Shown here one piece after another: positions 5,434 through 52,900 of a stretch of 64,000 bases of DNA. The notes below the pieces were generated by a model. The model had not been told where the DNA came from. It ran no database searches and saw only the letters and a program-made list of their open reading frames with translations. Position numbers and translations under genes: made by a program. Each line of letters begins with the position of its first letter. The stretch's first letter is position 1. The stretch covers positions 1,678,492 through 1,742,491 of the forward strand of contig CAJINV010000012.1 of NCBI GenBank assembly GCA_905178155.1. Direction: 5' to 3'. This DNA is from Amoebophrya sp. A120. Lineage: Eukaryota; Protista; Dinoflagellata.

Positions 5434-5644
5434 TATGACGGTGCACAACTCCCCCTCCCCCTCATTTGTATAGCATTAAGGGCAATACAAGCATCAGCAA
5501 GATTGCAGGTCTTGCATGACAAATTTGCACTGGATTGTAGTGCTATTTGGGCTGCCAGAACTTGTCATGCAAACAGTGCTAAGAGGCACAGGGTCGATTG
5601 GGTATTTTGCATGACAAATGAGGCGGGAGTTGTGCACTATCATA
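5434..5644. mobile_element. Introner family B
   Basis: TATGACGGTGCACAACTCCC TIR; DR GTGCG. Confidence 0.85.
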
Positions 5645-6703: not shown

Positions 6704-6864
6704 TATGAACTGCAAAAGTATCGCACTCGTAATAATTGCAGTCATGCATTAGAGATCTTTTTCTTGAGGCTAATCCGCATGACAAATTTTATTTCTCATG
6801 CTGAGGAAATGTAATGCATTTTTTTATAGATACGCATATGAATGCGATACTTTTGCAGTTCATA
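6704..6864. mobile_element. Introner family A
   Basis: Perfect TATGAACTGCAAAAGTATCGCA TIR; DR CTTTG. Confidence 0.9.
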
Positions 6865-8351
6865 CTTTGGCGGTGACATGGGCATCTGGGAAACGGCCGC
6901 GACCGCAGAGGAGTGTCGGCAAATCTGCGAACAAAACGCCGAATGCGAGCTGTTCACGTTTTTGAGAGGCCAGGTGAGAAACAATTGCCTGTTCAAACGC
7001 GGGCTCGGAGCGGAAAAGAGGTATAATAGCGACACGGCCAGTGGGCGTTGCGTGTTTGAAAAGGTGGATTACGAACTGGTGCAGGAGCCACCGGCGGCAG
7101 CGGAGGGTTTTTCTCCAAGTAGTGCAAGCAGCAATGGAAATAATGTTCCGGGACTAGAAGCCTCCGCGGCAGGTTTTTTGGAAAAGAGAAAAATGGAAGT
7201 AGATCGTGTTGTTGAAAATACGGGCGAGCGGATGGCTTCGCAGAGTGGTGATGATGATGAAAAGCGCAAAGAAATAGGACTAGCAGAAGATGCAATCAAG
7301 TTAGAGGACGGAAATAGTGCGCACGTCGAGGAGAAAAGGAATCAAAGCGAACAGGACCGGATGCTTCCCGCGGTGGGCGCAGCTAGAAGAATAAAAAGCC
7401 GTCCTCCGCTAAACAATCTTCCCTCGGCCGTGCAAGTAGCAGACATGACCGCGCCTTCATATCAAGCAGAAATTTGAAGAAGTGATATGATTTTGATTTT
7501 AGAAGTAAAGTGTTATGCATAACAAGAACTAAGAAAACACAACCTGGTCGTCGGCTATGTCGTGGGATCAACGTTGTTCGGGTGCGTTGAGAACTTCGAG
7601 AGCTGCACCAAGTAAGAACCAGATCTACAACTCCTCACCCTTGTGGATTGATTTAGCACTACTGACATAATCACTCAAGTCAACCTTGTGCGCCTCGTAC
7701 TTGATGAGTTCGCTGCAGCTCGAACAACAGCTCTGTAGACTTCGGACGAGAGAAGAGTGAAGTCGAGGTAAAGGGATTCAGACTCTTCGACAAAACCCTG
7801 CGAGTAAGAGGAAAACCGTAAATTACCGTATCGACTCTTGTTTTTTGTCATTTTCATACAAATAAGCTTTTCGTCGCACCCGCCGAGGACTGCAGCGAAA
7901 TAATAAAAGTTGTAAAGCTACCAAGACTACATATACGGAGCGACAAACTCACGTTCATACAAGATGTTTGTTGCCGCGCGTCAACATACAAACATCACCA
8001 GGACGCGTCCAGGTTGATGTGTGGCTCCCTCAAATAGCTGGCGCGGAGGCGGGGAGCACGAAGTAGAATCTCTTCAACACCACGTCCCTGCTGCAAGAGG
8101 GTCGTCCTCGTGATCGGAGCGGCTGCAGCGGCTGCATTCTTGCACGACAGCCAAAGCGGCCGGAGCGGCTGCACTCTTGCACGACACACACATCAAAGAA
8201 AATATCTACTACAACCACCTCAGTACAACTGCGCCGGTTGTCGCCGACAAAGATTCTCCGAGAAAGAATCTCAATCTGTACAACAGTCGACCACGCGACG
8301 TCCTCACATCTCCCTCGGACCATGACGGGTGGACTTCTTGGGTCGAGGAAG

Positions 8352-16901: not shown

Positions 16902-19900
16902 ATGGACAACTACAGTAGGCCGCTGCCGGTGACCTCTGCTCAGTTCCGCAGTAGCAGGGAAGTGCTTCGCGGTCGGACTACAATTAAGGGTTGAAAAAAT
17001 TAAGGTTTACATCAGGGTTTTGGTTCGTGGTTTCATAGATTTCGCAGCCCCCGCCTTTGTCCCTCTTCGCACCGCCCGGCAGTTGTCCAGGTGGTGCCTT
17101 GGTTCGTATTTCGTCTGGCTGGCAAAACCAAAGCCGCCGGGCCTTCAGAGCTGAAGGCCCNNNNNNNNNNNNNNNNNNNNNNNNNNNNNNNNNNNNNNNN
17201 NNNNNNNNNNNNNNNNNNNNNNNNNNNNNNNNNNNNNNNNNNNNNNNNNNNNNNNNNNNNNNNNNNNNNNNNNNNNNNNNNNNNNNNNNNNNNNNNNNNN
17301 NNNNNNNNNNNNNNNNNNNNNNNNNNNNNNNNNNNNNNNNNNNNNNNNNNNNNNNNNNNNNNNNNNNNNNNNNNNNNNNNNNNNNNNNNNNNNNNNNNNN
17401 NNNNNNNNNNNNNNNNNNNNNNNNNNNNNNNNNNNNNNNNNNNNNNNNNNNNNNNNNNNNNNNNNNNNNNNNNNNNNNNNNNNNNNNNNNNNNNNNNNNN
17501 NNNNNNNNNNNNNNNNNNNNNNNNNNNNNNNNNNNNNNNNNNNNNNNNNTGTTCTGGGCGGGTTTGTTCGCCCATATCGTGCCCAGGCAACCTGCCTGGC
17601 CTTGCAAGTTACTTGGGGCGAGTGACAGGGCGCCCGGTTGCTCTGCCTCCGGATCTCGTTCCGCAGTCTTGCGGGACAACGTTCGGAGGCAGAGGTAGAT
17701 CACCATCCTGGCCAGCCAAAGAGATGCTTGCCCCCGTGATGGCTGCCGCCAAAGCGGCAGGGTTTTGGTCAGGGTTTTGATCCGAAAAGGCTCACCGCAA
17801 TCGAAGCAAAAACTTATTTTTTTCGGGAGCTTCCCCCGAGCTAATAAAATAAGTTTTTGCTTTCGCTTTGCTCTCCTTTTTGTCGCCGAAAGTGTGGAGC
17901 TGTTCTGGGCGGGTTTGTTCGCCCAAATCGTGCCCAGGCAACCTGCCTTATGACGGGCCCGCCTGGATGGGACCCAATCTGAAATTATCTCCGATTTTTT
18001 TAAGATTTTTTTTTTTGAAAAAAATTTTTGCCTCGGTAAAATGCTGCAACGCCGCCTCCGTCTCCTGACTAAGTTTGCGAATGTCAATCCATCATCGCAT
18101 TCTGCTGTTTCTTCCTTACATTTGAATCGAGAGAAAACGTGTATAGTAGCTGTATTCTTTGCATGAGGTGAAAGTGTATAGATCGCATAGATGCTCTACC
18201 TACCTTGTGTTCTGTTTTTTTACCACGATGGGATGCGTCGGTTGTTTTTTTATGTTGAGCTGAGAGATAGTTTAAGTAGAAACACACAATCCCACTTAAG
18301 CGCCTCTAGCGACTGTATTTAGCTACTGAAAAACTAAAGTTGTTGTCAGTCGCCGCACAACCGCATCACGGCGCGAAAGCCCGTCGCTGATTTCGCCGAT
18401 GTCCGCGCACCGTCTGATCGCTATCCAAGTCTCCTCCTTCGCCCGTTATTCCACCGCTTTTCCACCGCTGAATCTTGACGAGGCTCCGATATCCCGCAGA
18501 CACCGACGCTTCGCGATCCGCACCGCAAATTCGCTGATTGTGATACGCGGAAGAGCAGGGGCTTGGCGATCCTCGTATTAGTAGGCGGGACGCCAAGCAA
18601 TGAAACAAAAACGCAAAGACCGCTGACGTCGAGCCATTCTTTTTCTACATCTCTTTCCTCACACTTCTATTCTTGATCTCAGTCTTTTCGTCGCTGTAAA
18701 CTTAAAGGAAGTCATCACTGTATAATTAGGCGCGGCTGTTTGTATGATTAAGTAATAAATTTTGAAAAGATCTTCACATACGCAGTATGTTTGGGATGCG
18801 ATCTGTATTTGTATGCCGCCCAGCGAGGCGGCGAATTTATGAATTTTGCGAAGGAACTTTTGGCGCATTTTGTATGATCTAGTTGTCGCCGTGAGCGATG
18901 TGATTTGTGGTGGGGAAAAGTGATGTCTTTGGTACCTTTACGAACTCTTTCTTTCGCCGCAGGATCTTACTCTTTCTTCCGCAGCATCGCAGTGATAGCA
19001 GACCGCGAACTACGCCAGCACTTCAGCAGCTAAATACAAGTCGCAAATCTAGTCGTGTTTTGTTACAGGTATAGACGGTTAATATCTGTCGGCGCGCGCA
19101 TGATGATTGTGATCACAGGTCGACATGGAGCTCTGCGAAGAGCCTATGATTGGCAATGCGAACTTCTCATCTGAAATCGCCCCGGCAGTATAGCACTCAA
19201 TGTTCTCACAGTATGAAACAGCGCTTTTTTTCACATTCATATAAATTGCAGCCTGTGTCACGAAATCGCCATCATTATTGCGCGGAGCAGTCGAATTTGG
19301 CGTGAAGAACTAAACTTGTAATAGGTAGAAGTAATGTTGCAACTCAAGCTCCACCGCTTACGACAAAGGCTTTTCTTCTACTTGTATCACACTCACCGAC
19401 GCCGCATCTATCGACATCTACCTCCATCGACCGAAATCGCAATGCTTTTTTCACCGACAAAGCAGCCTCCTACTGCTCTACTTCTTTCTGCCTAAGCTTT
19501 CCTATTCAAACCGACCGACACTTCTGCCACAGATTCCAGATATAGCCGCTTGCTTACCACCGCAGAACCGACGCCATGACTTCAGTTTCCTTTTCGTGCG
19601 AGCATCTTTGTCACCGGGATCACACCATGCTACGCTGAGCTTCGCTTCGTTTTAAAATAAAATTAAAATTTACATTTTGTGAAAACAGACGCAGCTTTTC
19701 CAGCTGGTCTGTTTTCAATATTGAAACATTATGTTTTGTTCAAACAACAGCTTACGCATCCCGTTTCAGAAGTGATTAATTATATTTTACTATATGAAAT
19801 TTTTTTTCCCAACATGTATGTAGTGCTTTTAAATCACTTCTGTTTCCCGCTCCTTATTTACTGCGTGGTGCTGATATGTTGCCCTCCGCCGCGTGTAAGT

Positions 19901-22900
19901 CTGTTGGCGTGGTTCTCCTACCACCAGGCGTCAAAGTTTTCTTTACGAAAAAATTGAACATCCTACTAAAATCATAGAGTGCCCCGCACTAGATGATCTA
20001 TAAGTATGCACTTTTACTTTATACTGTTTGTCATCTCGTGCAAAGCGGCAGAATTTGAAGTCTATTCATTTACTCAGACATAAAGTAGAAAGTACGCGGG
20101 AAAATAACCGTAAAAATTGCGATACTATTTTCGATAGTAAATCTTACAAGTATAATGATGTAAGTTTCCAATTTATTATATTAGTTCATTTAGTAGTCGC
20201 AGAATTTACATAGACGACACTAGGACAACTACTCCTCATCGTCCTGGTCATCATCCGCATTCGCCACCGGGGCCGGGGCAGCACCACCCGGGCGGTTCAA
20301 GTTCAACTGGATCCGGCGGCGCTGGGGCGGCGGTCCCATGTTGTTGACCGCGTTGGCGTTCAAGGCGGGATCACCGTTGGGGAGCTGGCGGGTGATTTCC
20401 ATCCAGAGCGACTGCTTCGGCGACGGGTGCAAGAACGAGTACGGCAAGACCAACGCGTTGTACGCACCGACGGCCTCATTGTACATACCTGATAATGTTG
20501 TTTTTGGAATATGTACTTGTAACTTTTTGCATCTTAAATACGCACGTTCATGCGGACATCATTTGTGATGCAATTTTCACCAAACCGCATCAGTACTTGA
20601 GTCAAGATTATCAACAACAAAGCAGCAATATGTACCAGCCGCCAAGGCGGTGCGCGCCGGTCCCTCTTCGAAACTCTGCATGCTCTGCACGAGCGGGAGG
20701 ATGAGCTCGTCGGTGTAGATGGTCAGCAGCGACGGGTACTCGGTGAACAAGCGGTTGCTCATGTCCTCGTTGTGCGTCAACATGTTCGCCGCCCGGTCCG
20801 CGTGGATGTTGGCGATCCCGTCCAAGTAGCACTGGATCATCGCCTTCATCATGTCAATCAACGACTTGAACTTGTGGCGGTTGGGCAACCGCTGGTGCAT
20901 CTCCAGCTGATCGCGCAAGTCGGTCACGTTCTGAATCGCCGGACGGTGGGCCCAGTCACGCAAGGTCTCGCACACGCCGCCGATCGCGCGGAGGCGGCCC
21001 TCCAACGTGAACATCTCGTCCTTCGCCCGATTCTCATCGAGGGTGAGCAAGTACCGCCGGAACTTGCCGGTGTACGGGTTGACGAAGTTGCCCGGCATTT
21101 TGGTGAACGGAATCACCGTCATGCCAATGAGCGCGGTGTGCAAACCCTGCAGGGTGACCAGAACCGGATGGGGATGGTCGAGCGACATCCAGTTGATCAA
21201 GCGCGTCAAGTAGTCCTGAAACCACGGCTGTCCCTGTTATTGTAGATTATGTGTAGTTCGTGATGCATGTGCTACATACCGTAGCAGCACTACGTAGGCA
21301 CCAAATAGATGTAGCAAAGCATCACTATCACCGATGGAAATAGATGTTACGAATGACGCTCGATCTCTCAATGCATTTCCAACAAAACAACTATATAAAA
21401 TCGCGCCAGATCCTTCAGCACCGCTTCGTTGATTCCGGCAAACCGGGCACGCTTCATGGCACCGATGATGAGGACCTCAGCACGCTCAGCGGTGTCCATC
21501 GCACGCATCAACTCCGGCAGAGTATGCAACTGCAAATAGATGAGGCGCATATTTTTGTCATGCAAGACAGCCTACTGCTGTCATGCGAAGCAGCTTATTT
21601 CTTTCCATTCTTTTTTTTTCTTGATTTCCTTTTGTTCACTGAGACTTGTTCTGGTTCTTTCTTTATGTACATTCTCTTTTCACAGTCCCATCCACGAAAG
21701 TATAGTAGTGTTCTAGTGAGAAACTCATCACTTGCCTGGAGCAAGAACTCCTCCACACGCCTCATCAGTTTTTTCTCATAAGCGGTGAAGCGGGCCTGAC
21801 CACCGCCGAGGAAGATACCCAAGTTGATCTCCATCTGCTTCAACAACTCCTCGACCGCGGAGAGACGCAGCATCTGATATTTGTGTTTTATTTTCATTAC
21901 AAAGAAAGACGCGCTCAAGTGTATTTGTGATGCAGTTTTCCGAAAAGTAATGCACGATCCAAGTGCAAGATAACGTATACGAAAAAGCACAAAGCTTGCG
22001 TGATTCTATCTGTACAAATTTCATGTAGAAACAGCCGTCGTTGTAGCACGAATGTAGTGTGTATCAAATCAAAATCATTCATACGTCGCTGGCCAGCTCC
22101 CAGAAGTGCTCCTGCAAGCTCTGACCACCGTTCTGGCCGGGCAGCTGCTGCAACTGGGTCTGGATCATCTCCTCCAACACCTGGATCTGACCAGACTCAA
22201 TGGCGTCCGAAATGACCTGCAGGCTCTCCTTGATCTCCGGCATGTTGCACCCGATACCAGTCACGAACGGGCGGGCCTGCGCAAAGCACCTGTTTTCATG
22301 CATGAAAAGATTATTACTTTCGCGATTGCGTGTCGTCTTTGCATCACAGTCTTTCGCATGTCTACACACCATCACATCATGCATATTCTAAATTGAAACA
22401 AACCAACACTCAATACCAGTTCCGGAACTCAAACAGCGTGCGGGGGCGGCGCTCGTTGCCCCGGACAAAGAGTCCTCCACGGAATAAGGCCGTGATGGCG
22501 GCACGTTCGCACTCGTCCTTGGCAAACTGGTCGTTGAGCATATGGATGAGACGATTGCAGGATCCGAGCGCCCGGAGGCTATTCTGTTCATCAGTCAGGG
22601 ACGCATAACGTCCCTGGAGATGGCGCTGTTGTAGTGGACGTGCATCATGTAGTTTTTTTGCATGAGAAGCTTGTATTTTCATCACAAATTCTTCGCATGA
22701 AAGCATCTAGCACAGCAGCAGCGGTTCTATGCATGACAAAAGCATCCTTTTTCCAAATTAAATACACTGAATCTCAACTCCTGGGCGGGGGTGGTGTGCT
22801 GAAAATCCAGCGAACTCAACCGGTTGACCTCAATGGCGATTTTGTCCGTCCGCGTGTACAAGAGGATGGAGCGGACGGCGGACGGAAGGTTCGCCATGCT

Positions 22901-25900
22901 GCGCGCGATCTGCTCTTCCGCGGGGTCCTGTAATTCACCAATCTGGACGGCGCTCAACTTGGACAAGTACTGGACGCGACTCAAACGCTATGCATATGAA
23001 AAAACGTCCTCAAAAGTGCCATGCTGTGCTTTCATGTAGACCTCAATTCCGCATGACAATTTCATACTTATTTCATACAAGATCATCGCATGACAAAAAG
23101 AGCATATTTTCCCACGAGAGCAACAACCTATTTTGCAAGACAAACAGATACTTCACATGCCAGAATACAATGGTGCTTTTGGGTTTTTGCAAATTACATA
23201 TAAGACGGGCGCCCGTCTTCTGCTCCTGGCGATAGATGGTGGACAAGGCGGCGATGTGGTTGGCGTCCACCTGTGTGTCATGGTATTAAAATTATTCATG
23301 ATATGCTCTTCATTTTTCGTGGTACATCAAGCACAACATGCATAAATCGAAGTAAGTTTTCAAATAGTACAATACCGGCATCGCCAGTTCGCGCAAGTAC
23401 GCCTCCGCGAACTCATTGGTGTTCTGGGCAGCAGCATTGCGTCGTTGTGCCATCTTGACTTCTTTTCTCAAAGAAAAGGAACTCTCAAGAGCAAAGGATC
23501 AAGTCCCGGATTTAGTTGCTACGGTTTTAGATTGAAAAAGGCGATAAAAGGTGGCTGCTTTTTAGTATGTGTAAAGGACAACGAAAGCAAAATCAAAAAC
23601 AAAATAAGGCGAAGGTAGAAAAGCAAAGGGCGGCCACGTGTTCTGATCCCCAAGATCCTTGTTAAACTGCGTAAAGATGTGGCTTTTTTTTCCTACTGTC
23701 ATCAATCCAAAGCTGTTTTTTACACTAATACACAACGCGCTCTCTCATCAGAAAAAAAACAAACAAAGAACCGACTTCAGATGGCCTTTCACAAACAGTT
23801 TCAGCATTTACGAGAACGACATCCACACGGACGCGGCCTGATCGCCTTGGACATGGACAGTCTCAGCGTCGCAAGATGCACAAAAAAAAAGTACAACTCT
23901 CAGCCTAAAGCGGTGCGTTATGATATTGATCTTTGATAGTTGTATCTGGCAGGTGTGAGTCAAAGCTGTGTTCGAGATTTGTCATGCATATCACACGTAA
24001 CAAAAGAGAACAGGTCAGGAGCATGCTCACGACCTGAAAGGCGTGGAGTTTCTGCTCAGCGCGCGAGCTTCGCGTGCTGTTTTTACGCTGCATACAGCGC
24101 AGCGAGATTTTCTTTCCTGCATGACAAATGTATGGCCCTGGCCTTATGTATATGACATACTTGCATGTAAAACTCTTTGACTTTTCCCCACTACTGCCAG
24201 TCTGGTTCTATATACTATGTTTTTACTCATGTGCGCTATGTTTTTTACTACTATGTACTATGGAACTCGTGCGCGTGACTAGTGTTGCTTGATTGTACAA
24301 AACTACATCGAACTCTTCTCGTTATTGCAGTGCATTATAGTGCGTTCTATCCTATTGATAATCTTACAGTATTTACTACATTATACAATCAGGTGGACAG
24401 GCAAGGCGGACGCGGTAGCTTGCTTCTATGCCACCGTCAGTTTGGCCATGGTGATCTCAGAGGTGCCGCGCCGTGTCGTTCATCATCAACAAGTAGAGCG
24501 CGGCTTCCAAGTCCCAGGTCACGAAGCGTCATCGTCCATGCCACAGGTGCTGCCAGAAGGTGTCGGACGTGCCGTCCGTGACCACCGTTGCCCAGTCCAC
24601 AAGAGAATTATACAAGAGGAGCTAAATATTGATCGTCATTCTGCCGCTTTACCTACTTATAAGCTGGTACTTTTACTTGCTCAAAATCAACGGCTTTTCG
24701 TAGAGCTAGAATTCCTAAAAGAAAATAGATGTTTTGAAGAGTCAAAAATAGATATTTTGCGAGACTCAAAGTGGAGCACTTTCTACTTTGGAAAGTGAAT
24801 TGGAGCTATCTTTTTTCTGAGCGACAAAATATACAAAAAGATATTTTTAGCCGACCTATATTCAGTTATTTCCGGAGCTTAGTTTTTTTCGCGATACATG
24901 GCCGGAAGAAAGTTATTTTGGAAAATCCAGGAGATATTTTGAGTGAGAGAAAAAGAGGCATTTTGCGAGGTCTTTCTGAGAGAGCATTTTTTGAAGTACA
25001 AAAATCATACAAGAAGAGCAAGAATTTACTGAAGTTACATGTGTGTTCTTTTCCTACGACTTGCTGCGCAACGACATCTGCAGCTACGCCACCACCGGGC
25101 CATCCAGCAACGTATCCGCCCACGCTTCCTTTCCATTCTCCGCTTTATCCTGCTTCTTCGTCTTCGCTTTGATCTTCTGCTTCTTTTCCAGAAGCACCGT
25201 CGCCAACTCCAGTTCCTCCGCGCTGATTTTGCGAAAGTCGATCCAGTCCCCGGTAGCTGCGGATGGATCCATGTAGAGAAACGCATTTGCCGACACTTCC
25301 ATCATCGCGCCAAACTCCTTCTGCTTCGCTTTGTCGCCGTTCGTCCGCTGTGCAGCAAATTCCCGTATCTCCTTGGAGTACTCGGCATATTGGGCTCGCA
25401 GAATAGCCAGATCTTCTGGCTTCGACACCTGCAGGTAGTTCTTATCATCTCCTGCGTTCTCCGTCAAGAACCGCGTCCGCATCGCCCACCCGTTCAACAA
25501 CGCTTCCACCCACAACGGACCCTCCTTTTCGGCGTACCGCATCGACCGCATCGGCCGCGCCGTGGATTGGCATTTGAAGTCGATACCGGGATGCAGCAGC
25601 AACTTCTTGATTTTCTTCGCCAAACCGCTGTCGATGCACTTGGTCGACAGTCGCACCGAATCGCGACCAGTCTGTTTTTTGTCGAATACGGTGGAAGCCT
25701 CGATGCACTTGAAGCCGGCTACGCGGGTGGAAAGCAGCATATTCGCCACCTTTTGCCGTTCGTCCTGGTGGAGCTGGTAATTCTTTGCATCGATCACCAT
25801 CTGCGCGATCTTGCTCAACACCTGCGTCCCACCTTGGGTTTCCGCCTGCGTGGAAGATTGGGTAGTAGCAGCGCCAGCAGTTACGGTATGCGTTTTCCGA

Positions 25901-28900
25901 ATGGCGTCGGCATTCACATCGTCGCTGCGCAACTCGCGGTACGTCATTTTGTTGTCGTCAACAACCCAGATGCGGTCCGTAGACGATGGCGCCATAATCG
26001 ACGTAGAAAGCGGCTGCAAGAACGCATCCAGATTCGCCTGCGCGATCGCCTTTTCGCTGTTCAAAGCGGTGGAAAAAGGTTCTTCAGTCGTCTGCTCCTT
26101 CCGGTCTCCAGCACGACCGTTGCCGCTTTTGAAGAAGGACAAGTTGATTTTCTCGCCACAGTAAAACACGGACTTCGGCTTCCGCATTTTCACGTCGAGC
26201 TTCACGGTGTAAATCGGAGAGCTGCTATGCACTGAAAACTGGTCCCGTAGCTACAAATTTGTCCTGCTTTTTGCATGACTGATTATGTATGCGCTTTGTA
26301 TGTGCAAAACATATCTACAGCAGCTGCGCTTTTGTATTTGGAATGCGCAAATTTGTACTACAGGATCACTTTTACAGGCGTATATTGTGTCCAAGTCGTA
26401 TCCGGTATCTTCGTCATCCGAGAACAACCCTGCGTGCGTGGTGAGCTGCAAAGCGACGTCGAGCCACTCCTTGCCATTGCGGTTGGCCTGGTTTTCCCGT
26501 AACAGAATCGCTTTGAAGGCGGCAGGCTGCAAGACGATATCACACACGAGGAGCGTGCCCATTCTGCCGGATTTGCCGTGGCGAAACTGCGTAATTACCA
26601 GCGGCGACAGCAAGGTTGACACTTCCACAATACCCTCGAGGTCAGGCAGCACGACGTCGTTATTTTGGTCATCCAGATCCGGGTCTTCGAGGACGAGTTC
26701 GTCGTTTGCTATGCAGTGCACAGCTTCCACCGCCTGAAGCTTATTTGTCATGCGAAGCGACAATGCAAATGTGAAAAATATCTATCAGGTGGTGGACAAG
26801 TTGCACTGCATACCATCTCCGTCGAGTTCGGCAAGCGTCAGTTGATCCAGATCTCCGTCCTGCACACCGCTCTGCTTGCGCTGCTCCCGTAATGACTTCA
26901 GCTTTGCCCGTTTGGCCCGGACGTAGCGGGAAAGCAGGATCGCACTAGCAGGCTTCGGCCGAGCCTTCGCGCGGATGTTCGGGACCGTAGTATTCGACAG
27001 TTCTTGGTTGGTGCGGTTGCACATTGCCGGGAGCAACACGCGGTAGTTTCCCTGCTCCTCACGGTGCCGCTTTTCCACCTTGCTGCGTACCGCGGAATAA
27101 AAAGCAAGCTCCGAATTGCAGGGGACGAGCGGACGGATGTCATCTTCGTGATCGCTTTCACTTTCGGAAGAGCTCTCCTGTGCTTTCTGTTCCTGCTCCA
27201 TTTTATCCATGCGCGCGGCCATCAGGATGTACTTCGCCTTCTCGTCCTTGTTGTTGGGATCCCACTTATTGTGCTTTACGTTTTCGACCAGAGCTTCCTT
27301 TTGGGTTCGCTTCGCGCCGTCAGTCGGGAAAAAATCACGGCGCTTCTGATCAATGGCGCGATTGCAGGCGTAGGCACGCTTCGGCGGTGGATGTTCCTCC
27401 TCTTCTAGTTGCTGGTCTTCGCGGCGGTGCCACTCGATATCGGCGCTCGCTTGGGATTCCATCGTCTGCCAGTCCGCACGGTTCAACGCCGAGTCTGCTA
27501 CTATGGAAATGAAAACTATTTTGCGACGCATATACTACGTCAATTTGATGCACGAAAGCAGTGCCTTCTACTTGATTACAACAACTACAGGCTGCGCATG
27601 TAGATTATGTCTTACTACTTTTTTTATGTTGAAACTCGATGCTGGTCATGAATTCGCACTGTAAGTGACGCAGTGTAATGTCGCAAAGTGATTTTCTTCG
27701 CAGCATATCGCCCGGCACGCTTTTGGTTCCCCGCGCAGCGTAGTGCCCATGGTATTTGAACCGGCCACCACGGCGCTCGCAGTTTTTCAGGCAGACAGGT
27801 CCGGGCGAATTCCCGCCCTAATTGGCTGCTAAAAAATGGCTAATTTGTATCGGCGCCGTTGTCTCTGCCATGTGTTGCGCGCCGGGTGGCATGCTTGGCA
27901 GGAGCCGGCTGCCGCTCCGCTTCTTTGGGGGTTTTAAAATTTAAAAATTCGGCGTGTTTTTGGGTATAAAGGCGGGCGGGGGGATTGTCTTTGGTTTGTT
28001 GTGGGTGTTTCCTTTTCGGGTGAGTGTTGTGTTGTTCGAGCTCCCGGGGGACTTGCTCATGTCGCTTCCCGAATTAGATCACCCGGATGTGGTTGGGTTT
28101 GGGTGATCTAATTGCCCAGGAAGGTGGGCACTAAACGGCAAGGCCAAATTTCTAATTTGCATTTCTAACTTGCAAAGCAAGTTCTTCGCCCATCCGAAAC
28201 GGGTCTTCTAACCCGTCAGCTAACCGCATCTAATTGGTCGGCTAACCTGTTCTAACTGGCATCTAACTGCGTACGGGTAGGGAATTCCAATGGGATTTCG
28301 TTGATGTTTTTTTCATCAACGAAATCCCATTGGAATTTCCGACCCTGGTGTGCACAGGGGGATGCAAGTTAGAACACGATTAGACGACAAATTAGAAGGG
28401 GCCAAAAAAAATTAGATGCAGGTTAGCAGGCAGGTTAGAATGGGGGGGCTCTGGATTCGGGTAGCAGTTTAGCAGACTCCGGAGGGGGTTCGCCGGAGGT
28501 AAATTAGACGACAAATTAGAAGCCCGGTGTGGGGACTTGGATCTCAAGCAACCGCATTCGGGGTCCGCCGGCCTGCCTTTTGGGTTTCCTTTTTTGGCTT
28601 TCGAAATGTCCGCGGCGGGGGCCGTTTTTCTTCTCTCTGGGTCTTCATTCAGCCAGCTGCCAATGTTTCGGCCGCCACCTTCCTTCCCCGTCCTGTTTTC
28701 GCCTTCTCCTTTGGTTTTGGCCTTGGGTTCGAAAGGCCATCAAATTAGCCCGCTTTTATCTTCCAATTAGAAACGTTAGGTCGCCCGGGCCTGTCTTCCT
28801 GAAGTTTTTGCTACTGCGATTAACGACCTGCAAGTACTCAGTCAGTTTCTGCATCTGCTGCTTGCGAATCTCCTCCGGTTGATTCATCATCCACCGCTGA

Positions 28901-31900
28901 ACGCTGTGCAGGGAGATGCTGCCAGGGTCTTCTTGGACGTACACCGCAAAGTCCATTTCTTTCAAGTTCTGCATTTCCGCTTCGAGGTTTGCTTTTGCCT
29001 TTTGGATCCACTCTTCGCGCAGGTCTCGTTTGCCATCCCGGTGCCACAAAATAACTCGGCTGATGAACAACATCTGCTGGGCGGAAATCCGTGCAAGCTC
29101 GATCTGAGTGAGTTTATATATGCACATGATGTAACGTTCATTGTTCCGACGCGAATTATGCATGACAAATTTTGCAAAAAGTATAAAGAAATACTAAGTC
29201 TTTTTGTGCGTCGTCGAATATCACCTCGCCGATTCCGATTCCGCACATCAGATAGGCGATGTCGTCGTAAACCGCATCCAGGTCGGACAGATATAAATAA
29301 ACCTCCTGCAGATCCTCCAAGAAGCGGCTCCTCAAACTAGTGCGGGTGCGTTCGTGAAGGTCGTTTTTGAGCATTGCAGCATTATAATGCTCAATCGGCT
29401 TCAGAATCATGTGCAGAAACCGCGAGACGATGAGAAAAATGAACTGTGTGCCTGGAGATAATTGGATTTATTTTGCATGGTGGTGCACTTTTTTAATCAC
29501 ATACTGGCTTACAGATTGCATTACAAATCATGCTGCCACGAAGTGTCTTTACACATGTAAAAGCGTTTGCATTTCTAAGAATTTGCATTACAGATTTATG
29601 CTATACCGCTTTCCTTCGACATGTCCAGCTTGAACCCGTGCTCCAGTATCTTTTCCGCCCCAAAACTGACCCGCTCTCCTAGTCCGTAGAAGATCCTCGC
29701 CAAAAACATACTGCAGCACAACAGCATTTGTCCGAGGGCTTGCCGCACTGTGAGCCAGCGGGTCCAGACTGGCGCCCGCCAGCCGCGATACAAACTATGT
29801 AATCCACGCAGCGCAGCGGTTCTTCCGTCCTTCGGCACTATCAACATCCGCTGCTTCACCGAGCATCCGCGGAGGAACTTTTTCTTCTTGTAGTTTATCT
29901 CGCGTCTGTCCAAGAAGTTGTTAAAGGCTTGGTCTTTCGCCATCGGTTCGCTCTTGTCCCATGGCGCAATCCACCGAGCAACGCCGTCGAGCGAGTTGTG
30001 TATTTTTTCGGACAGCAGTTTCACACTGTGCACCTGTAGATTAGAAGTAGTTGGCTTTTGATTTGAAGTGCACATTTGTCATGCAAATAAGCATGCGATC
30101 ATAGTACTGAAATGCATTACAAAAATCAAAAAAAACAGTACTTGCAGCCGCAGTCTCTTCTGCCATCCTTTCGGATCCAGATTGAGCATCCCGAGATACA
30201 TCTCGGCTATTTGGCGGGTTACTAGTGCTGCTTGGTGCACCTTACACCTCTGTGTCCACAGCACCACATTGGCCAGGTGCTTGCCCATCATAAAAATTCC
30301 GCCGATGAAGAAGAGCGTATTTATTGTGCTTCCACCCGAGTCCGTCACTGGACTCCAAATTTGCACGCACTGCTGCCCGAAACGCCCGAAAAAAATTTCC
30401 GGGTTGTGAAACGTCAGCACCTGGTCCGCCACCTCCCATGCTTCTTTCACTCCAACCGCGAAAGCAGCTCTTTTGTCCCTTTACTTTCGCCCCGAAGTTC
30501 TGCGACGAAGGATATAGCACGGTGTGCGTTGGCACAAACACCGACCCGATGTTCATCAGGCTTCCGCAGCAGAAGGTAATCGCGACGATCGACGCCATCA
30601 CATGCGCGAAGATCTTAATCCTCCCCCTCACACTGTTTTCAAACAGCATGCTCTGCGTCGTGGTTCCGTCGATCTCCACCCGGTAGTGGACCAAGGTGAG
30701 TTTCGGGTTCGCGAAGTACTCGCGTGCGTACTCGAAAGCCGTCTCGCATAACAGGTAGCACAGCTTCCACAACTTGCGTGGTGCCAAGTAGGCTTTTGCT
30801 GTGAAGAATTTTTTGCATTCCTCGTTCTTTTCTTGTTCCGCCTCGGCCTTCTTCTCCTCTTTGTTCATCTTCTCGTCGCTGCCGAAACAATAGAAGATGA
30901 CCACAGAAGGAGTGGGTTTGCTTTTTGTCTACTATGATGATCCGCGGTGTAGGTGTGGAAAGAATAGTATGACTTTATGGCGCACTATCTACATTCCAAA
31001 AAAAAACGGGCCCTGTAGTTATACTAGTGGGATTGTGTGTTTTAGTTACTTCATTATGTATGTTTTTAGTTATATTAGTTTCATGTAGACACTAGATTTA
31101 GGTCCTGGCTCTGCAAAACAAATATCATGATAGTTGTTTCTTCGATTGGTCCCCGATCTTCAGGCGGACGGCCCGGGGCGGGGATTCCGGCTATATTCCG
31201 GCTATGACCTGGCTAAATTTTTGCGCAGCCCGCGCAGGTTTTTTCTTCCTTGGGGCCGGGCTGCTCGGGCGCGCCAGCGCACCCTTCCCCCCATGCGTGG
31301 AGCAGCCGGGCGGCGGGTGTTTGGCGCAGCTGCGCGCGCGGCCCGCGGCGCCAGTGCTTCGGCAGCGCCTCGCCCCGGGGTGCCGCCCTTGGCCGTTTTG
31401 AGTTTTAAAGACTCGCAAGGTTTTTGCGCTGGGGTTTTTAAATTCCCAAGAGGCCGGCCCACTTGGCCGATATTTCTTCCAGCATTCATCCTGCCGCCGC
31501 CTGGGCGACAGGGTAAATGCTGGCGGAAATCGTCGGCCAGGATCCGGCTAAAATCCGGCTAAATTGGAGCTAATTCCCAAAAGAAATTCAGCTAAGTATC
31601 CAGCTAAGTGCTCCGCTAAATTCCAGCTAAATTCTGGCTAAGTATCCGGCTAAGTATCCGGCTAAATGTTGGACACTGGGAAAACGGGAAGGATTTTGGC
31701 CCCGGGGCCCCCTCGGGCCCTCCGGCCCCCTCCCGGGGGACCCAATTTAGCAGAGCACTTAGATGGATACTTAGATGGATATTTAGATGGATTTTTTTTG
31801 GCCTCCCGAGCCGAAAAGCGGCCGCGAATTAGCGAGGCCGGAGGCAATTTAGCAGAGCATTTAGCCGGAGGCCCGCTAGATATCTCCGGCGTTTCCCGAA

Positions 31901-34900
31901 AAGGCCTGCGCGTGAGGCTGGCCGGCCACGCGGCATTTGCAATACCGGGCCCGCGGGGTCGGGCCCGTCGCGCGCGGGCCGGGGACGCTCCGAAGCCGTG
32001 CCGCGGCCGCAGTGCGGGCCCCGGATGGCCCGGCCCGTTCGCTTCCGCCGCCTACGGAGGGATGGGCCGGAGCCCGCGATCGCAAGGGCGCGCGCCTTCT
32101 TTTGGTTCCACGCCCGGAAGCGCGCCCGCGGGCATTGGGTCCGTGCGCTTCCGGCTTTTCAATTTAGCCAGAATATAGCGGTCGTTTAGCGCGTTGCCCC
32201 GCCCCGGGTCGTCCGCCTGACGATCTTCGTCTTCACCGGTAGAGGCACTGCTATTTCAGAACTTGAAAACAACCGTCGCTCCGCCATCCGCTCCTGAAAT
32301 AAACAAAAACCTCTCATTTTTTCAGAACAAAAAACAACCGCATCGTGGTAAAAAAACGTAGCAACTATCGAAAAAAAACAAACACGTAGCACGATAGAGC
32401 TACACAATACAGACCGCATAGCTACTAGTCACGTTTTTTTCATAATCATCTCCGCCGGTGCTCCGCTGACCTTCCGGGCTTCAAAATCATCACGCCGACA
32501 TCTTATTTTCTTACCTTGATGTGCTCTTCCGCCCGGTCTTCGTCTTTTCCTTGAAAACTTTTCTGCTATACAGGGCTGTAAAGCGGAGTACTTACGAACC
32601 CTTCCGCAACTCCGAAACCCTCGCAGCCGCACTATGCAGCGGCTTCCGCGATCGGGTTGGGATCGCTGCAACCTGCGATCTAATATTTGTCATGCAAAAA
32701 CAGAAGTTTTTGCATGACAAATTTTCGCATCGCAAGGTTACGAGTCCCAACCTTTACGACAGCCGCTGCTGTCAATGTGCGGCCGAGTGCCGATCTGTGT
32801 GTCGCCTGGCAGATCGGAAAAAGTGTTTGCGATCACGGAGGAAAGGCAGACACCGCTCGGCGGTATGGCCGAGGAAAAAAGCCTAGTATTCACATAGCAG
32901 CAACAGCCGCGGGTCGTGTGTTGTTTCTTTTACTATTCGACCACAGTGATCAAATAGAAAAAGAACACGCTTCTCCCCTCCTACTTTTCCGGTTCTCCCC
33001 GTCGTGTTTGATATGGTGATCGCGGTGACAATTGTTACTTCTACCTCGTCATCCCATGAAGGGTGAAAAGGGACTCGAAGTAACAACTAGGTGCCTTTAC
33101 CGCTCGGCCAAATGGCCGAGCGAGTAAGAACAGGCCGGAAGCATCGTATCAAACACGATAGCTTTTTTTGCGCCGACCACGGAGCATAGAGCTGTCGCAC
33201 CACGACGCTGTGGCTCCGCGGTTTCTTAGTGCTTTTCTTGACCGCACTACACTGCGCAAAAAATCACCGTCTTCGGGAATCGAACCCGAGGTCGATGAAG
33301 GGTGAAAAGGGACTGGGACAAACAACCGGGGGCCTTAACCGCTCGGCCAATAGGCCGAGCGAGAGAAGACGATCACGCGCGTCGAGTTCGCATCCTCTCA
33401 TCGATCGAGGCGGATTCCGTGCTGTTTCGCATTGTGCGGTGACCACAGCATGGGAATTCGCGATCGATGATGTGAAATCGAAAGCGATCACCTAGGTTCG
33501 AATCGACGATACCATCGGGATTCGAACCTATGATAAAAGTGATCGAAATCGGGTGTCGACGACGACCTAGGGGCCTTAACCGTTGGGCCAAGCGCCCTAA
33601 CAGCCCCAGAATAGAACAAAGAGGACCTAAAACAGGTCGAAGCAGCCTGCTAGTCGATTTTCGACTTGAAAATCGAGCTGAGCAGGCGAAATCGGTATAG
33701 AAATGGCCCTCACACCCTGTATAGCAAAAAACTTTTCAGTGAAAATCTAAACGAAAAATTCCAAAAAATTTTCAAAAAAAAAAATTTCAAAAAAATCGGA
33801 GAAAAATAGACGAAATTTCTTATCAGTAGGGCCCATCATAACCTGCCTGGCCTTGCAAGTTACTTGGGGCGAGTGACAGGGCGCCCGGTTGCTCTGCCTC
33901 CGGATCTCGTTCCGCAATCTTGCTGGACAACGTTCGGAGGCAGAGGTAGATCACCATCCTGGCCAGCCAAAGAGATGCCTGCCCCTGTGATGGCTGCCGC
34001 CAAAGCGGCAGGGTTTTGGTCAGGGTTTTGCTCCGAAAAGGCGCACCGCAATCGAAGCAAAAACTTATTTTTTTCGGGAGCTTCCCCCGAGCTAATAAAA
34101 TAAGTTTTTGCTTTCGTTTTGCCCTCCTTTTTGTGGCTGAAAGTGTGGAGCTGTTCTGGGCCGGTATGTTCGCCCACATCGTGCCCAGACAACCTACCTG
34201 GCCCTGCAAGTTACTTGGGGCAAGTGACAGGGCGCCCGGTTGCTCTGCCTCAGGATCTCGCTCCGCAATCTTGCGGGACAATGTTCGGAGGCAGAGGTAG
34301 ACCACCCTCCTGGCCAACCAAAGGGACGCCCGTTTCTGAGGCGTCCGCCGCCGACCTCATCTGCAAACCAAAACCTTACTTTATTAGGTGGCGTTTCGGA
34401 GAAAAAATAATTAAGGTTTTGGTTTAGAGATGAGGTCGGAAGCCCGGTTTTCCCGGGGCTTCCCCCGAGCTAGTACGGTATGTCTTTGTCGTCAAATCGG
34501 CCACCCGGGTGTGCGGGTCTAGGCATGGCCAACATCCGCCGCCGGAGATTGGCTGGGCAAAATCCCGGCCACAACAAGAGGGCTGCTTTCCGGGGCTGCT
34601 TGCGGAGCTCGTGTTGAAAGCAAAAACTTATTTTATTAGGTCGTGTTTCGGAAGAAAAAAAACTAAGTTTTTGATTTGAAGTGAGCTCGTTATACTCAGC
34701 CGACAAAAGTCGGCCTCTCTTTTTGAGGTCAAGTTCCTACGGGCCGGCCATGGCCAGCCTCCAGCCACTGCGAGTGGCCCAGCAGGAAGTGGACCGCAAA
34801 AAGAGAGGGCGATCTTTGAGGTTGGGTTGTCGACCTCATCTCCAAACCTAAACCTTAATTTTTTTTTGTCCGAAACGCGACCTAATAAAATAAGGCTTTG

Positions 34901-37900
34901 GTTTGAAGATGAGGTCGACGGCGGACACCTCAGAGCCAAGCATCTCTGTGGCTGGCCAGGAAGGTGATCTACCTCTCCCTCCGTACGTCGCCGCGCAAGA
35001 TTGCGGAGCGAGATCCGGAGGCAGAAAAGACGGGCGCCCTGCCATATGCTCCAAGTAACTTGCAGGGCCTGGTAGGTTGTCTGGGCACGATGTGGGCGAA
35101 CATACCGGCCCAGAACAGCTCCACACTTTCAGCCACAAAAAGGAGGGCAAAGCGAAAGCAAAAACTTATTTTATTAGCTCGGGGGAAGCTCCCGAAAAAA
35201 AATAAGTTTTTGCTTCGATTGTGGTGAGCCTTTTCGGAGCAAAACCCTGACCAAAACCCTGCCGCTTTGGCGGCAGCCATCACAGGGACAGGCATATCCG
35301 TCGTTGGCCGTTAAGGTGCTCTGCCTCTGCCTCCTCCCGTTGTCCCGCAAGATTGTGGAACGAGATCCGGGGGCAGAGAAGCCGGGCGCCCTGCCAGTTG
35401 CTCCAGGTGGCTTGCACGACGAAGCAGGCCGCCTCGACACGATATGGGCGAGCATATCGGCGCAGCTCGGCTCCGCACTTTCGGCCACAAGATGAAGCAC
35501 AAAGCGAAAGCAAAGGCTTACTTTTCTAGATCGGGGGAAGCTCCCGGGAAAAGTAAGTCTTTGCGTCCATGTCCGTGAGCCTCTTCTGAGCAAAACCCTG
35601 GCCAAAACCTTGCCGCTTTGGCGGCAGCCACTACAGGGGCAAGCATCTCTGTGGCTGGCCAGGAAGGTGCTCTGCCTTTGCCTCCGGACGGCGTCCCGCA
35701 AGATTGCGGAACGAGATGCGGGGGCAGAGAAGCCGGGCGCCCTGCCATTTGCTCCAGGGAACTCGCAGGAAAAGGCAGGCCGCCAGGCCAAGATAGGGGC
35801 GCCCGTGTCGGCCCAGTTTAGGCCACCAAGTTCGGCCGAAAGGGGGGGGCCAGGGCAAGGGCAAAGGCGCAAGCGTTAGTCTGGGGAAAGCTCCCGGAAA
35901 AAGTCAGAACCTGCTTCCATTTTGGTGCGCTTTTGTCATGAAAAGGCCTAGCCGAGAACTTGCCGCCTTGGCGGCAACCGGGACCCGGCCAAACCTCCAG
36001 CCGGGCAAGCCCGCAGCTGCTCAGCCTCTTCCCCCGGACCCCGCTACGCGCCACCGCAGGATGAGATCTGGGGGCGGAGAAGCCAGGCCAGCAGCCCGGC
36101 GCCCCAAATACCTCGCGGCGGATGGCATGCGTCTGGGGTTCTTCTGGGGAGGTGCCGAGGCTAATATCTTGGCCAGCAGTCCAGGTCAGCAGAAGCCGAG
36201 AAAAATGCCGCCGCGGCTTCATCGTATTCACCCGGGGGAGAGGTTGGAAGCAGCAAGCGCGCGGCCTCCATTTTGCCCGGCTTCTGCTGGTCTGGATACC
36301 GGCCGAGATGTTGACATCGGCGCAGCGAGCTTTTTCGGCTGGATGGTCTGCGCTTTCCTTTTCCATTCAGAGCGAAGAGAAAAAAAATGAAAAATCGCAA
36401 ATCAAAACCTTGACCAAAACCTTAATTCTTTCAACCCCTAATACAACGTCAAGAGCCACCCTCACCGGCCGGACCAGCAGAACGAGAACTCCCCGTGGAA
36501 GCTCGACCACTACTTCGTGGTGTCGCAGGAGCTGGTGGTCCAGAAAGAGCCACATCGTCAAGAACACCAAGACGGCTCGGGCTCGGCTCCTCCTGTCCTC
36601 TTCGCTCACTCTGCACCTGTTCTTTCTCCTGCAGTTGCAGTCGTTCTATCTGGTTCAGCATGCGGATCTTGTACACGGAAGACGACGCATGCTGCGTCAC
36701 GAGGACGACCGAGGGAAAACAAAAGAGGAAATTGGGTACGAGTTCCATATGCATTGCAAATATGTCCGGGTCTGGAAGGTTGGGACTTGTCATGCTACAT
36801 CTGGATCGTGGAAAGATTTGTGTTGCACGATTACCAAAAGAGGTCCACTTTTGAACAAGTTTGGAGGCAGTTTCTGATGCAGGAAAGGCATGATAGAGAT
36901 CTCACAGAACCTGTCATGGTAGGCCACGCATACAAGACCGCGTGGGCCATGGAGAATCTGCATGACAAACCTGGATGTCCACGGCAGCCGGATGTCCGTG
37001 ACCTGGTTATAAAGGGCTTCGTCGATCGATTGCGCCACTAGGGCCTTGTGTTCCGGCTACTCCGGATCGCAATCGATGGAGGGCGGGGCCTGCACCGGCG
37101 ACAGGCGCTATCCAACCAACCAACCAAACCTAGCAATCTTCCAGACCCAGACATCTTTGCATTTGATATTCCGCGAAAAAAGCGACCTCTTCCCGCTAGG
37201 CAAGGTGGTTGCAGGTTTGTGGTCTTGGTTTTTCGGATCGGGTACTACAGTGCGAGAAACGAACGGTTTTAATATTTCTACGAACGGCACGGGCACCAAC
37301 GCAACCCCAACCAACAGCACGACGCCGAACGGCACTAGGTCTACGAGCACTTCTCCCGGCGAGACAAGCACCACGGTTGGTGGCGTAGCGAACGACAACG
37401 CGGCGGCTGTTGGCAGCATCAGGTGGGCATCTTCAGGTAGCCCGACGTCCGCTGGTAGTGCCAATGCCGGTACGAGCGGTTTTATCACGACTGCTGGAAA
37501 CATGACAAGGCGGCGGAGCAAGAATGACACGATCATAAGTCCCGCCACCAGCAGCACAAACATAACGAACGCGGCGGTAAGTGGAGAGAGTACCATTCGC
37601 GCGACGAACATCACCAATACGACTTTTAATGGGACCCGGACGTCGATGAATGGCACCACGAATTGGACCAATTATGGGAGTGTGGAACTCCCCATCCCCC
37701 TCAACTGATGTAAGTAGCTTGAGATTCTCTACACTTACAGCAATGCAGGCATTCACGATCAAGCAGCCTCTAAATCGAAAATTTGAAGGTGGATTGTGCT
37801 TATTGTTTGGTCTACTACTACTTCCGAAAGTTGTCATGCACACAGTGCAAAAAGCAAAACTAAGTCACATAGTCGGTATAATTTTGCATCACAAAAAATG

Positions 37901-49900: not shown

Positions 49901-52900
49901 CACAGGATATGCAAAAAAAACTGGAGCAGCAGCTCGAGGACTGGAGAGACCAGACGCTTTTCGAAGAATTTCAAGAAGGGCTAGTGCTTGCCGAGGGAAC
50001 GGGAAGGATAACGCAAAAACAAAGAGAAAGCTGTGCGACGAAGTTGTCACGCGGCGAGGACAGAAAGGTGGGCTATTCCGATCTAGTCCTTGGGCCGCAG
50101 CTGTGCGGGGCGAGTACTGGTGCTGGGGTGGAAATGGGTCGACGTTTAGAAGGTGTGTCTGGTTCAACAGCAGCAGCAAGAGCAACATCAACCAAAAACG
50201 AAGACGACACGACGACTACTTCAGCTGAACAGGATGACTCACTGCCGCACGACGACAAGTCCCCGCCGCGCAAGGCTTCTCCGCCGTCGGCGGAAGAGCA
50301 AAGGCTATTAAAGCTGTGGCAAACCATCTACTGTCCGTCCCCGTTGTTTTTTCGACAAAACACATCAGCCTGCGCGGAGGTCACAGCTGCGCTGCATCAA
50401 AAGTCATCTCAGACAGATCATGAAAGAGCAGGCTCTGGTGGCTCTAGATCATCCCCCTCCTCAGCGTCGACCTGTGATGTTAGTGGTTCAAGCGGAAGCT
50501 CGCGTGAACAGGCAGGAACGACAAGTACTAGAGAGCACCCAGCGAAGGCTTATTCGGAATCGGAGGTGCAGGAAAAACAAAGTTTGTTTGATGCCGACGT
50601 ACCAATGAAAGTAGGGCAAGTAGAAGAAGGACGACAGCCACCACCAGCACCATCAACAGCACAGCCGCAGCGCAGCGCCTGTGAAAAGACCACAGCGTCC
50701 TCTTCTCAAAGACCACCGCAGGAGAAGATCTTGCCATGCCAACACCGCTACATGTCGGAAGCGTTTGAAAAGTCGAAGCAGTTGAAGATTTTCCTGACCC
50801 GCATGGCAAATCGCCTCCGCATGTGGCACTTTCTCGGTCTCCAGGCGACTGTAAACGAGAACGATGTATGCCCGATCTGCTTGGAACCGGTGCTGATAAG
50901 CCGCGGCGGTGGGAAGATGCAGAAGGATAAGACGCATGACAAAGTGACAGACTCTTCCTCATGCAGCAATGGTGCCGAGGATGATATCTCCGAGCTTCTC
51001 GTGTCGTGTGCCTCCAGACCGGTCGCGCACGTGATGCACGCCAGCTGCTATGTGCAGCATGGGTACGAGCTCGGGGGCAAAAAACAACTCTACCGGAAAC
51101 GGAGTCGTCGGTTTCTCCGGGACTGCCCGGTCTGTCGCGAGTCGAAGTTCCCGCGGATGAGAGGACGCGTACGAGAAAATGACGTGGCAAATAAAGCCGG
51201 TCCACACATCTTTAATGATGCGAAGGTGCCTGCTGACGACAGCGAGGACAAGAAAAAGACTTCTCTATCAAGAACCTCAGAAAGAGAAAGAAGGTCGGAG
51301 GTGCAAGAAAACCTTAACACCAGCACGGAGAAGAATAACCAGGCCGCCAATAGTTGTGTCTTCGAGTCCGACTCGAGTTTGCTAACCGCGGCGTTGAAAC
51401 GGGCTCTGTGTTGCAATCGGCGGGTGGCTCTGTCAAATTTCGAGAAGAAAAAGCTGCTGCTGCTGCAGCAAGCAAGGCTGGAGAAGGAGCAGGCGCAAGC
51501 AAAGCTGGCAAGGGACGAGCGGGCGGTGAAACAAGAAAAGGAACTACACGAAGATCATACTGATGCTCTTTCGTCGGAGCGAGAGCGTGATCTTGAGAAC
51601 CGCCCCGCTTCAGCCTCCTTTTCGTCCCGGTTATTTTCGCCCAATAATTATGCGAGCAATGTGTGGCGCCTGAGCAGCAGCGCAGCTAGCAGCTCTGGAT
51701 CTGCAGCTACAACAACCTCCGCGATGAACAACGTCGAACTGGATCCACCAGCATCCGAAACCATCCTCCTCCGCACCCGCAGCACCGCCGCTGAAGAAGT
51801 GGCGACGCGGTGGAATAACGTGATGGAGGTGTTTCGCAACGCACTCTCGACAATTGCTATCCAAGAAAAAAACTGTGTTAGTGTAAACTTTCTTTGGCTG
51901 ACAGCATCTGCTCTACATGACAGAGAAAACCTGTCATGCGTGGCTTACAAGGGAAAACACACAGGAAAAGAAGACCGCATGGTTGTCTGGCATGACAGGT
52001 GTAAACAGTTTTGCATTTTCTGCATTACAGAGCTACACTTAGACAGTTTTTTTCTTGCATAATTGCGGACGAAGACAGCGAAGACGAGGATAGCTGGCTG
52101 GAAAGCTGGAGCTCCTTTCTCGACGTCGTTCCGCTGGTATGACAGTGCACGACTCCCGCTCGTCCCCCTCATTTGTCATGCAAAATACCGAATCGTCCAC
52201 ATCTTGCGCTTGCCTTTAAGCACTCTGCGCATGACAAGTTTTGGACGCCCAAACGCCCAAACAGGACTACATTCCACATTTACGGACTTGTCATACGAAA
52301 GCTACGTTTGTGGCATTGCTTCTGTTCCTGTTGCTGCTCATGCTACAGTACAAATGAGGAGGAGGGGGAGTTGTGCACTCTCATAGCTGGCGCCTGCTGC
52401 TGCTCCGAGCGAGGGAACAAGATCTACAGTCCGCGGAGGTGCAACGGCGAATGTAATGCCATCGAATAACTTGTTGAACTACAATTTGAATGATTTGGTT
52501 TTTCAGCAACTGCAGGACAGTCTTCTAAACCACAATCGTAACGACCACACTAACATAAACATGCCAACGAACGCAGCTGACTTGGACGAAACCGCCGGGA
52601 TTTGGGGCGGTTTGGCCCTGATGCCGTTCGCGGACGCGATTTCTAATCGAGGGACAGCACAGGAACAGGACATGCCGTGGTACCAATTCGGCGGCCCGCC
52701 GGTGCCATATCCTGTGCAAAAGTATCGTACTCGTATTGCAGTCATGCATTACAAATTTTTTTCTGAAGCTAAATCCGCATATAGATTTCTCATGCTGAGG
52801 AAATTTCTAATGCATTTATACGAGTGTATCGAAGAAAAAAACACCATCACAGTCACAAAATTCAAATTTTCAAAATTTTGCAGGAGCTGAACAAAAAATT

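Follow-up and report, generated by a model that had tools for sequence, protein, structure and literature searches.

A large, inactivated DNA transposon with a probably hAT-like transposase gene in Amoebophrya sp. A120

Our analysis of a 64,000-nucleotide stretch of the Amoebophrya sp. A120 genome (contig CAJINV010000012.1, positions 1,678,492 to 1,742,491; called the window here and numbered from its first letter) indicates that it contains a dead cut-and-paste DNA transposon of 15.9 kb, whose main gene probably encoded a DDE-like enzyme of the hAT superfamily (Hermes type). We give this reading, in which the predicted enzyme has about 1,350 amino acids and a second gene of the element would be a long-resident accessory, a probability of roughly 65%.

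The block between positions 17949 and 33840 is a genuine single insertion. Its flanks are the two halves of a single 351-bp unit of a fold-back repeat element, and removal of the block and 8 further nucleotides from the sequence restores a 351-nucleotide unit that aligns without gaps with the intact neighbouring unit (11 mismatches). The empty junction is spanned by one contig of public DNA run X1 at a depth of 495, and the 351-bp units are multicopy in that run, from which the window itself could derive and which is thus not independent of it. Three X1 contigs (depth 43–52, 0–1 differences) cover the interior from 17986 to 33869, the last of them crossing the right end into the flank. The left end begins with TATGACGGGCCC at 17949, whose inverted counterpart (12 bp, one mismatch) ends at 33840, and further inside lies a 37-bp subterminal inverted repeat that is 92% complementary. 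An exact 8-bp repeat together with a near-perfect 12-bp inverted repeat occurs as six pairs in the window, five of them inside other repeats; since the end pattern recurs, the empty site and not the end pattern alone is decisive. An initial annotation of the window, made from its letters, had pointed to both ends and to a length of about 13.8 kb without the two MITEs (miniature inverted-repeat transposable elements) nested in the element. Both claims hold: the restored unit and the empty-junction contig support the ends, and the length measures 13,803 bp.

The target duplication, ACCTGCCT, can be parsed perfectly in three ways, because the duplicated 8-mer begins with A and finishes with T: as 8 bp with TATG ends, as 6 bp with TTATG ends, or as 7 bp with asymmetric ends. 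The 8-bp duplication proposed in the initial annotation is thus present as a perfect duplication, but the sequence does not favour a length of 8 bp over 6 or 7 bp. For both MITEs the 6-bp reading fits better: their duplications are perfect only at 6 or 7 bp, and an 8-bp reading puts one and the same mismatch at an identical place in the two. A second left end found in X1 (below) is likewise preceded by T. All of the readings here (6–8 bp) fall inside the published hAT range; the hAT5, hAT6 and hAT7 groups have duplications of 5, 6 and 7 bp, respectively (PMC12730594).

On its minus strand the element carries a broken transposase-like gene (Table 1). Its exons were modelled from DNA alone, and removal of six introns, of the MITE that interrupts it (MITE1) and of one 4-nucleotide frameshift gives an open model of 1,357 amino acids, whose start is undefined, the gene start being disrupted near the other MITE (MITE2). 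The motif residues in this model are D87, D196, C228xxH231, R354W355 and E582. The five hAT hallmarks listed in the initial annotation are therefore all found in order, but the fifth appears only with MITE1 removed; it then reads SSKNCER or SSKNFER, according to which of the two duplicated copies one retains. With the frameshift and with MITE1 in the E motif, the element is no longer autonomous but dead. The ordered motif pattern arose in none of 20,000 shuffled sequences, a figure that is only indicative, since the pattern was defined after the sequence had been viewed. RNA runs X4 and X5 gave no reads and run X6 one poor read (counted with no control stretch).

This gene belongs to a real protein family. 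A full HMMER search of 1.84 billion representative sequences with the first exon gave a single match, P0001 (38% identity, E 4.9e-22), and a search with P0001 added P0002 and P0003 (three of 1,536 candidates, P0001 itself included). All three are gene models of Amoebophrya sp. AT5.2 with 33–56% match to the window, and the alveolate host named in the initial annotation agrees with this, the only homologs found being Amoebophrya gene models. Together with the intron architecture, these names suggest an Amoebophrya-like syndinian dinoflagellate as host. DGTT is kept in P0001 and P0002 and deleted in P0003, TDSG is kept in two of the three and CxxH in all three; RW is kept in P0003, the sole homolog that reaches that region, though the T of TRW is not. 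It is this retention of the first four motifs that makes the family real, and the homologs read in frame across the site of the window's frameshift. Their gene models stop where introns 1 and 2 of the window gene begin, which suggests that intron positions may be common to the window gene and the AT5.2 homologs, and the presence of three diverged copies in the AT5.2 genome is in keeping with a repeat family. Elsewhere no relatives were seen: a word-based search with the transposase core among proteins of 516–2000 amino acids gave none (0 of 983 candidates), metagenome scans none among 122 and 573 pattern matches, and viral scans with P0002 and the C-terminal exon none.

Judged from its motifs the enzyme is probably hAT-like, short of established membership in the superfamily. 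W355 and E582 are 227 amino acids apart; we take the corresponding distance in Hermes to be 253, using E572, and the spacing within SSxxxER matches that of hAT proteins. The published distances are 319 amino acids in the hAT protein Kat1 (W576, E895; PMC4763223) and 18 in the Mutator protein Muta1 (W401, E419; PMC5225508). CxxH and the tryptophan are common to MULE (Mutator-like element)/Mutator and hAT enzymes (PMC5225508), yet 227 against 18 and 319 amino acids makes the spacing here hAT-like and not Mutator-like. With the hAT superfamily (Hermes, Ac and Kat1; hAT5, hAT6 and hAT7) the element shares short terminal inverted repeats (here 12 bp with one mismatch) and subterminal ones, a duplication that reads as 6–8 bp, the order D-D-CxxH-RW followed by a putative SSxxxER, a long segment from W to the putative E and nested MITEs. 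Unlike its members, it has no detectable sequence similarity to the others, a model of about 1,350 amino acids with about 775 past the E, TATG or TTATG termini, a second intron-rich gene, boxes of the RNA polymerase III (Pol III) type near one end, and no BED finger that we could see.

A number of results weigh against the assignment to hAT. Pfam was blank for all exon-sized pieces and for the fragmentary homologs (the C-terminal hAT motif being scanned only as two halves), sequences in the PDB gave no match for exon-sized pieces or homologs, and the Atlas gave no usable match for P0001. An AlphaFold model of P0001 built from four sequences had a mean predicted local distance difference test score (pLDDT) of 35.7 and no Foldseek match at E<=0.001, and a second model reached a mean of 40.3; both models were of low confidence and uninformative on the fold, and nothing in Pfam, the PDB or the models ties the protein to Hermes, the comparison that the initial annotation had proposed. 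Neither the model nor the homologs, whose models begin only about 80 amino acids before the first D, show a BED zinc finger, which many but not all hAT enzymes carry, or any other DNA-binding domain at the N terminus. The putative E is covered by no homolog, so E582 is a candidate residue standing beside a family and four motifs that are observed, and the D-CxxH-RW pattern without the E motif appears in 183 of 20,000 shuffles. The termini are TATG, unlike the usual CAG/TAG of hAT elements. Finally, the interior was seen once in run X1, so that a single event speaks for the content having moved together. What stood of the hAT identity first proposed is thus the order and spacing of the motifs, with four of the five recurring in homologs; similarity to known hAT sequences and an RNase H-like fold did not emerge. 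A match of the C-terminal exon to histone H2A (PDB sequences, E 0.24) was treated as noise, and Pfam finds no known domain in the approximately 775 amino acids C-terminal of the last motif.

With no likeness to known hATs in Pfam or the PDB and an ambiguous duplication length, the element could be genuine and yet have an enzyme from a different DDE group of the CxxH type (Mutator/MULE, Dada, P, Kolobok or KDZ/Zisupton) or from an unnamed sister group. CxxH and the tryptophan, as noted, are common to MULE and hAT, Zisupton duplications are 8 bp (PMC12730594), and Dada elements are hAT-related, make duplications of 6–7 bp and are present in the alveolate Perkinsus (PMC3706591). Dada elements, however, are without terminal inverted repeats and insert into small-RNA genes (PMC3706591), whereas our element has such repeats and its target is a fold-back repeat in which Rfam finds no gene. 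The Mutator/MULE layout, with its short W-to-E distance and long inverted repeats, departs from the 227 amino acids and 12-bp ends seen here, and the former excludes it provided that E582 is the catalytic residue. The SSxxxER spacing also agrees with hAT, and we regard membership in one of these other groups as unlikely, though it is the strongest competitor of the hAT-like reading.

The second intron-rich gene reported in the initial annotation (gene 2) is present as an open model, and its codon usage follows that of the transposase gene. GC content at third codon positions (GC3) is higher in gene 2 (Table 1) and the transposase gene (0.69) than in nine raw host open reading frames (ORFs; 0.45–0.62), and the relative synonymous codon usage of gene 2 correlates with that of the transposase gene at r 0.77 and with that of the host ORFs at r 0.42, so that, by this rough control, gene 2 is less host-like than the transposase gene. 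The two genes also share an intron motif. Homologs of gene 2 were found neither in Pfam nor in viral scans, PHROGs gave nothing below E 0.03, and a word-based search with a gene 2 exon among proteins of 355–2000 amino acids, the only search able to reveal an AT5.2 ortholog, gave none (0 of 1,468). A match to reovirus sigma NS (PDB sequences, E 0.013) was treated as noise; in the Atlas the exon falls, with low recognition, among mixed clusters of HEAT/ARM-type helical repeats, which is a weak lead. Because its codon use resembles that of the transposase gene and no homolog of it was found, the earlier description of gene 2 as cargo is not shown to be right, and on these sequence features it is likely a long-resident accessory gene rather than recent host cargo, although codon use is weak evidence for this. 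Without the MITEs, the transposase locus accounts for 4.8 kb, gene 2 for 3.2 kb, the left non-coding region for 2.3 kb, the gap between the genes for 1.6 kb and the right end for 1.8 kb; the element is large, then, because of two intron-rich genes together with spacer and subterminal DNA of about 5.8 kb, to which the MITEs add 2.1 kb.

The same layout might be a composite, in which a smaller hAT-like element gained, or was split by, a host segment with gene 2, making the 13.8 kb a one-off and not a family architecture. The copy counts that bear on this rest on X1 contigs, which show presence and not absence. Interior depth is flat in X1 at 85% likeness and the interior is single-copy. Five contigs matched a left-end query: this copy, the right end of the element itself, a further right end and, in two pieces, a second left end that has another flank, a diverged terminus and a different interior after about 100 bp. 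The second left and right ends show that the ends belong to a small family, but the search for other copies suggested in the initial annotation turned up no second locus among these contigs that joins the ends to this content. A composite origin would also suit a gene 2 that looks intact next to a broken transposase gene, and the lack of a gene 2 homolog beside the transposase homologs (in the search limited to 355–2000 amino acids). Against it, when we scanned for nested inverted repeats with duplications, only the two MITEs came up and nothing convincing bounded gene 2, the block still inserted as one unit, and the codon use of gene 2 is the less host-like of the two. We find a composite rather improbable. 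That the block is an assembly artefact, or a chance repeat pair around ordinary host genes, is scarcely credible: a run of N lies 400 bp to its left and the window has five other repeat-derived end-plus-duplication pairs, but the X1 contigs pass through it and its right end into the flank and the split 351-bp unit rejoins without a gap.

If the hAT-like reading is right, the transposase would have bound the terminal and subterminal repeats, and D87, D196 and E582, aided by CxxH and W355, would have cut both ends. The cut ends would then have been joined to a staggered target within the multicopy fold-back repeat, gap repair would have created the target duplication, and afterwards the 4-nucleotide frameshift and two MITE insertions, one of them in the E motif, would have killed the gene.

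Table 1. Positions in the window of the large element, its parts and its surroundings
Feature	Position	Strand	Remarks
Whole element	17949..33840	.	15,892 bp; 13,803 bp without two MITEs
Target duplication, left copy	17941..17948	+	ACCTGCCT; 6-bp reading CCTGCC with TTATG termini
Target duplication, right copy	33841..33848	+	ACCTGCCT
Left end	17949..18021	+	12-bp terminal inverted repeat; subterminal inverted repeat, T-rich, at 17985-18021
Right end	33769..33840	-	Subterminal and terminal inverted repeat
Broken transposase-like gene	25084..30928	-	1,357-aa model; six GT-AG introns of 105-155 nt
Putative first catalytic Asp, D87 (IDGTT)	30668..30670	-	
4-nt excess causing frameshift	30442..30445	-	In X1 contig without differences
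Putative second Asp, D196 (TDSG), to CxxH (C228/H231)	30235..30342	-	
TRW motif (W355)	29755..29763	-	
End of SSxxxER motif (putative E582)	27776..27781	-	Separated from SSK by MITE1
MITE1	27788..28801	+	1,014 bp; (T)CAGG ends; sits in E motif; perfect 6-bp or one-mismatch 8-bp duplication
MITE2	31161..32219	+	1,059 bp; (T)CAGG ends; distant relative of MITE1; upstream of modelled exons
Gene 2	20229..23453	-	9 exons, 639-aa open model; 6 GT-AG, 1 GC-AG and 1 non-GT intron; GC3 0.82
Possible third small gene or remnant (weak)	23781..24666	+	ATG at 23781; divergent from gene 2
Three ~240-bp repeats with tRNA-type A boxes	33056..33591	-	Two with B box ~62 nt downstream
Fold-back repeat element hosting insertion	16984..36441	.	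~3.5 kb (389-N gap included); 351-bp units; TTAAGGG..CCCCTAA ends; 5-bp duplication TACAA
Example introner-like elements	5434-5644, 6704-6864, 52827-54028, 58521-58782		

The initial annotation suggested that the element may represent an undescribed large hAT lineage. It is indeed large, divergent and probably hAT-like, but large gene-carrying hATs have already been published. Like it, ToxhAT of wheat-pathogenic fungi, 14.3 kb long (PMC6737239), has a hAT-like transposase, and its inverted repeats enclose about 14 kb with further genes and nested elements; it differs in its eight genes, 74-bp ends and lack of a target duplication. Our element has a duplication and an empty site, and none of its genes has a known function. 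The TET-carrying hAT7 elements of rust fungi are likewise hATs with a second gene and a non-8-bp duplication, but their hAT transposases are recognisable and their extra gene is a TET/JBP dioxygenase (PMC12730594). A review of giant eukaryotic transposons, which in the excerpts seen makes no mention of hAT, states that transposition drops above 6 kb of cargo (PMC6431247). Our literature search found no paper on this family or on hAT DNA transposons of Amoebophrya (Repbase, subscription journals and supplements lay outside it). With this locus, the range of large two-gene hAT-like elements comes to include a dinoflagellate lineage that branched early. The element shows a transposase-like family with clear ends and an empty site that known-domain searches missed; being a single dead copy, it is a useful lead and does not amount to a new mechanism, and the locus can serve as a seed for finding DNA transposons of Amoebophrya parasites.

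The family could bear on the introners of these parasites. Amoebophrya introners include inverted-repeat families that start with TAT, and in the strain concerned no transposase to move them was found; the same genome study, which searched with known transposon domains, reported two putative transposases for one of its strains but none for the second, leaving the mobility of thousands of introners unexplained (PMC7789003). They have also been attributed to diverse elements, unknown ones included (PMC12130899). Between 1482 and 60116 the window has short elements with TAT[G/C] ends, at least 16 of which have exact 5-bp duplications (16 such duplications among 37 candidate rows, several of which are false candidates); they are of several families, some of them nested, and host introns carry elements of this kind, which look like the introners described for Amoebophrya (PMC7789003). 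The large element also starts with TATG, and it has its first 8 bases in common with one intronic element, that at 5434. It is a poor candidate for the autonomous partner of the host intronic elements: the termini are shared, but the introners have 5-bp duplications and the large element has no 5-bp reading (6–8 bp), which makes a direct parent-MITE relation unlikely. A bolder idea, which we hold to be quite doubtful, is that this family supplies the transposase lineage still missing for the TAT-ended introners that make non-canonical introns in Amoebophrya; the enzyme would be hAT-like, too divergent for domain searches, and carried by large two-gene elements in subfamilies that differ in duplication length, like hAT5, hAT6 and hAT7. 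One intron of the transposase gene (26710–26812) has the form of a TATG..CATA hairpin that lacks a duplication; it may be an old introner within the element.

The tRNA-like repeats of the initial annotation lie near the right end of the element. With the consensus that we take for A and B boxes, three A boxes and two B boxes are there, but no tRNA is: ARAGORN predicts no gene and Rfam has no tRNA among 35 matches at E<=10, its miRNA-type matches being plain hairpins below gathering scores. The repeats are likely Pol III promoter-like and not tRNA genes. Inside the ends, the regions 18120–18300 and about 32290–32450 show degenerate inverted homology (score 84, against a maximum of 78 in 200 shuffles; the segments were chosen by eye), possibly paired inward promoters, and there is a 17-bp perfect inverted match between 18280–18296, in the left non-coding region, and 31026–31042, upstream of the transposase exons. 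In the gap between the genes the best coding score is at 24394–24621, and Pfam was blank for 23781–24666.

The whole locus is a nest, into which the fold-back element, then the large element and then the two MITEs were inserted. The fold-back element contains an assembly gap of 389 N (17161–17549), which lies 400 bp to the left of the insertion. The two MITEs have palindromic interiors with 12-bp tandem repeats (28229–28396 and 31586–31795); they are colinear and, though highly diverged, belong to one group. A scan of 19 large host ORFs gave a single clear Pfam match, a PAN domain (PF00024, E 2.6e-7) in the exon at 6842–7474.

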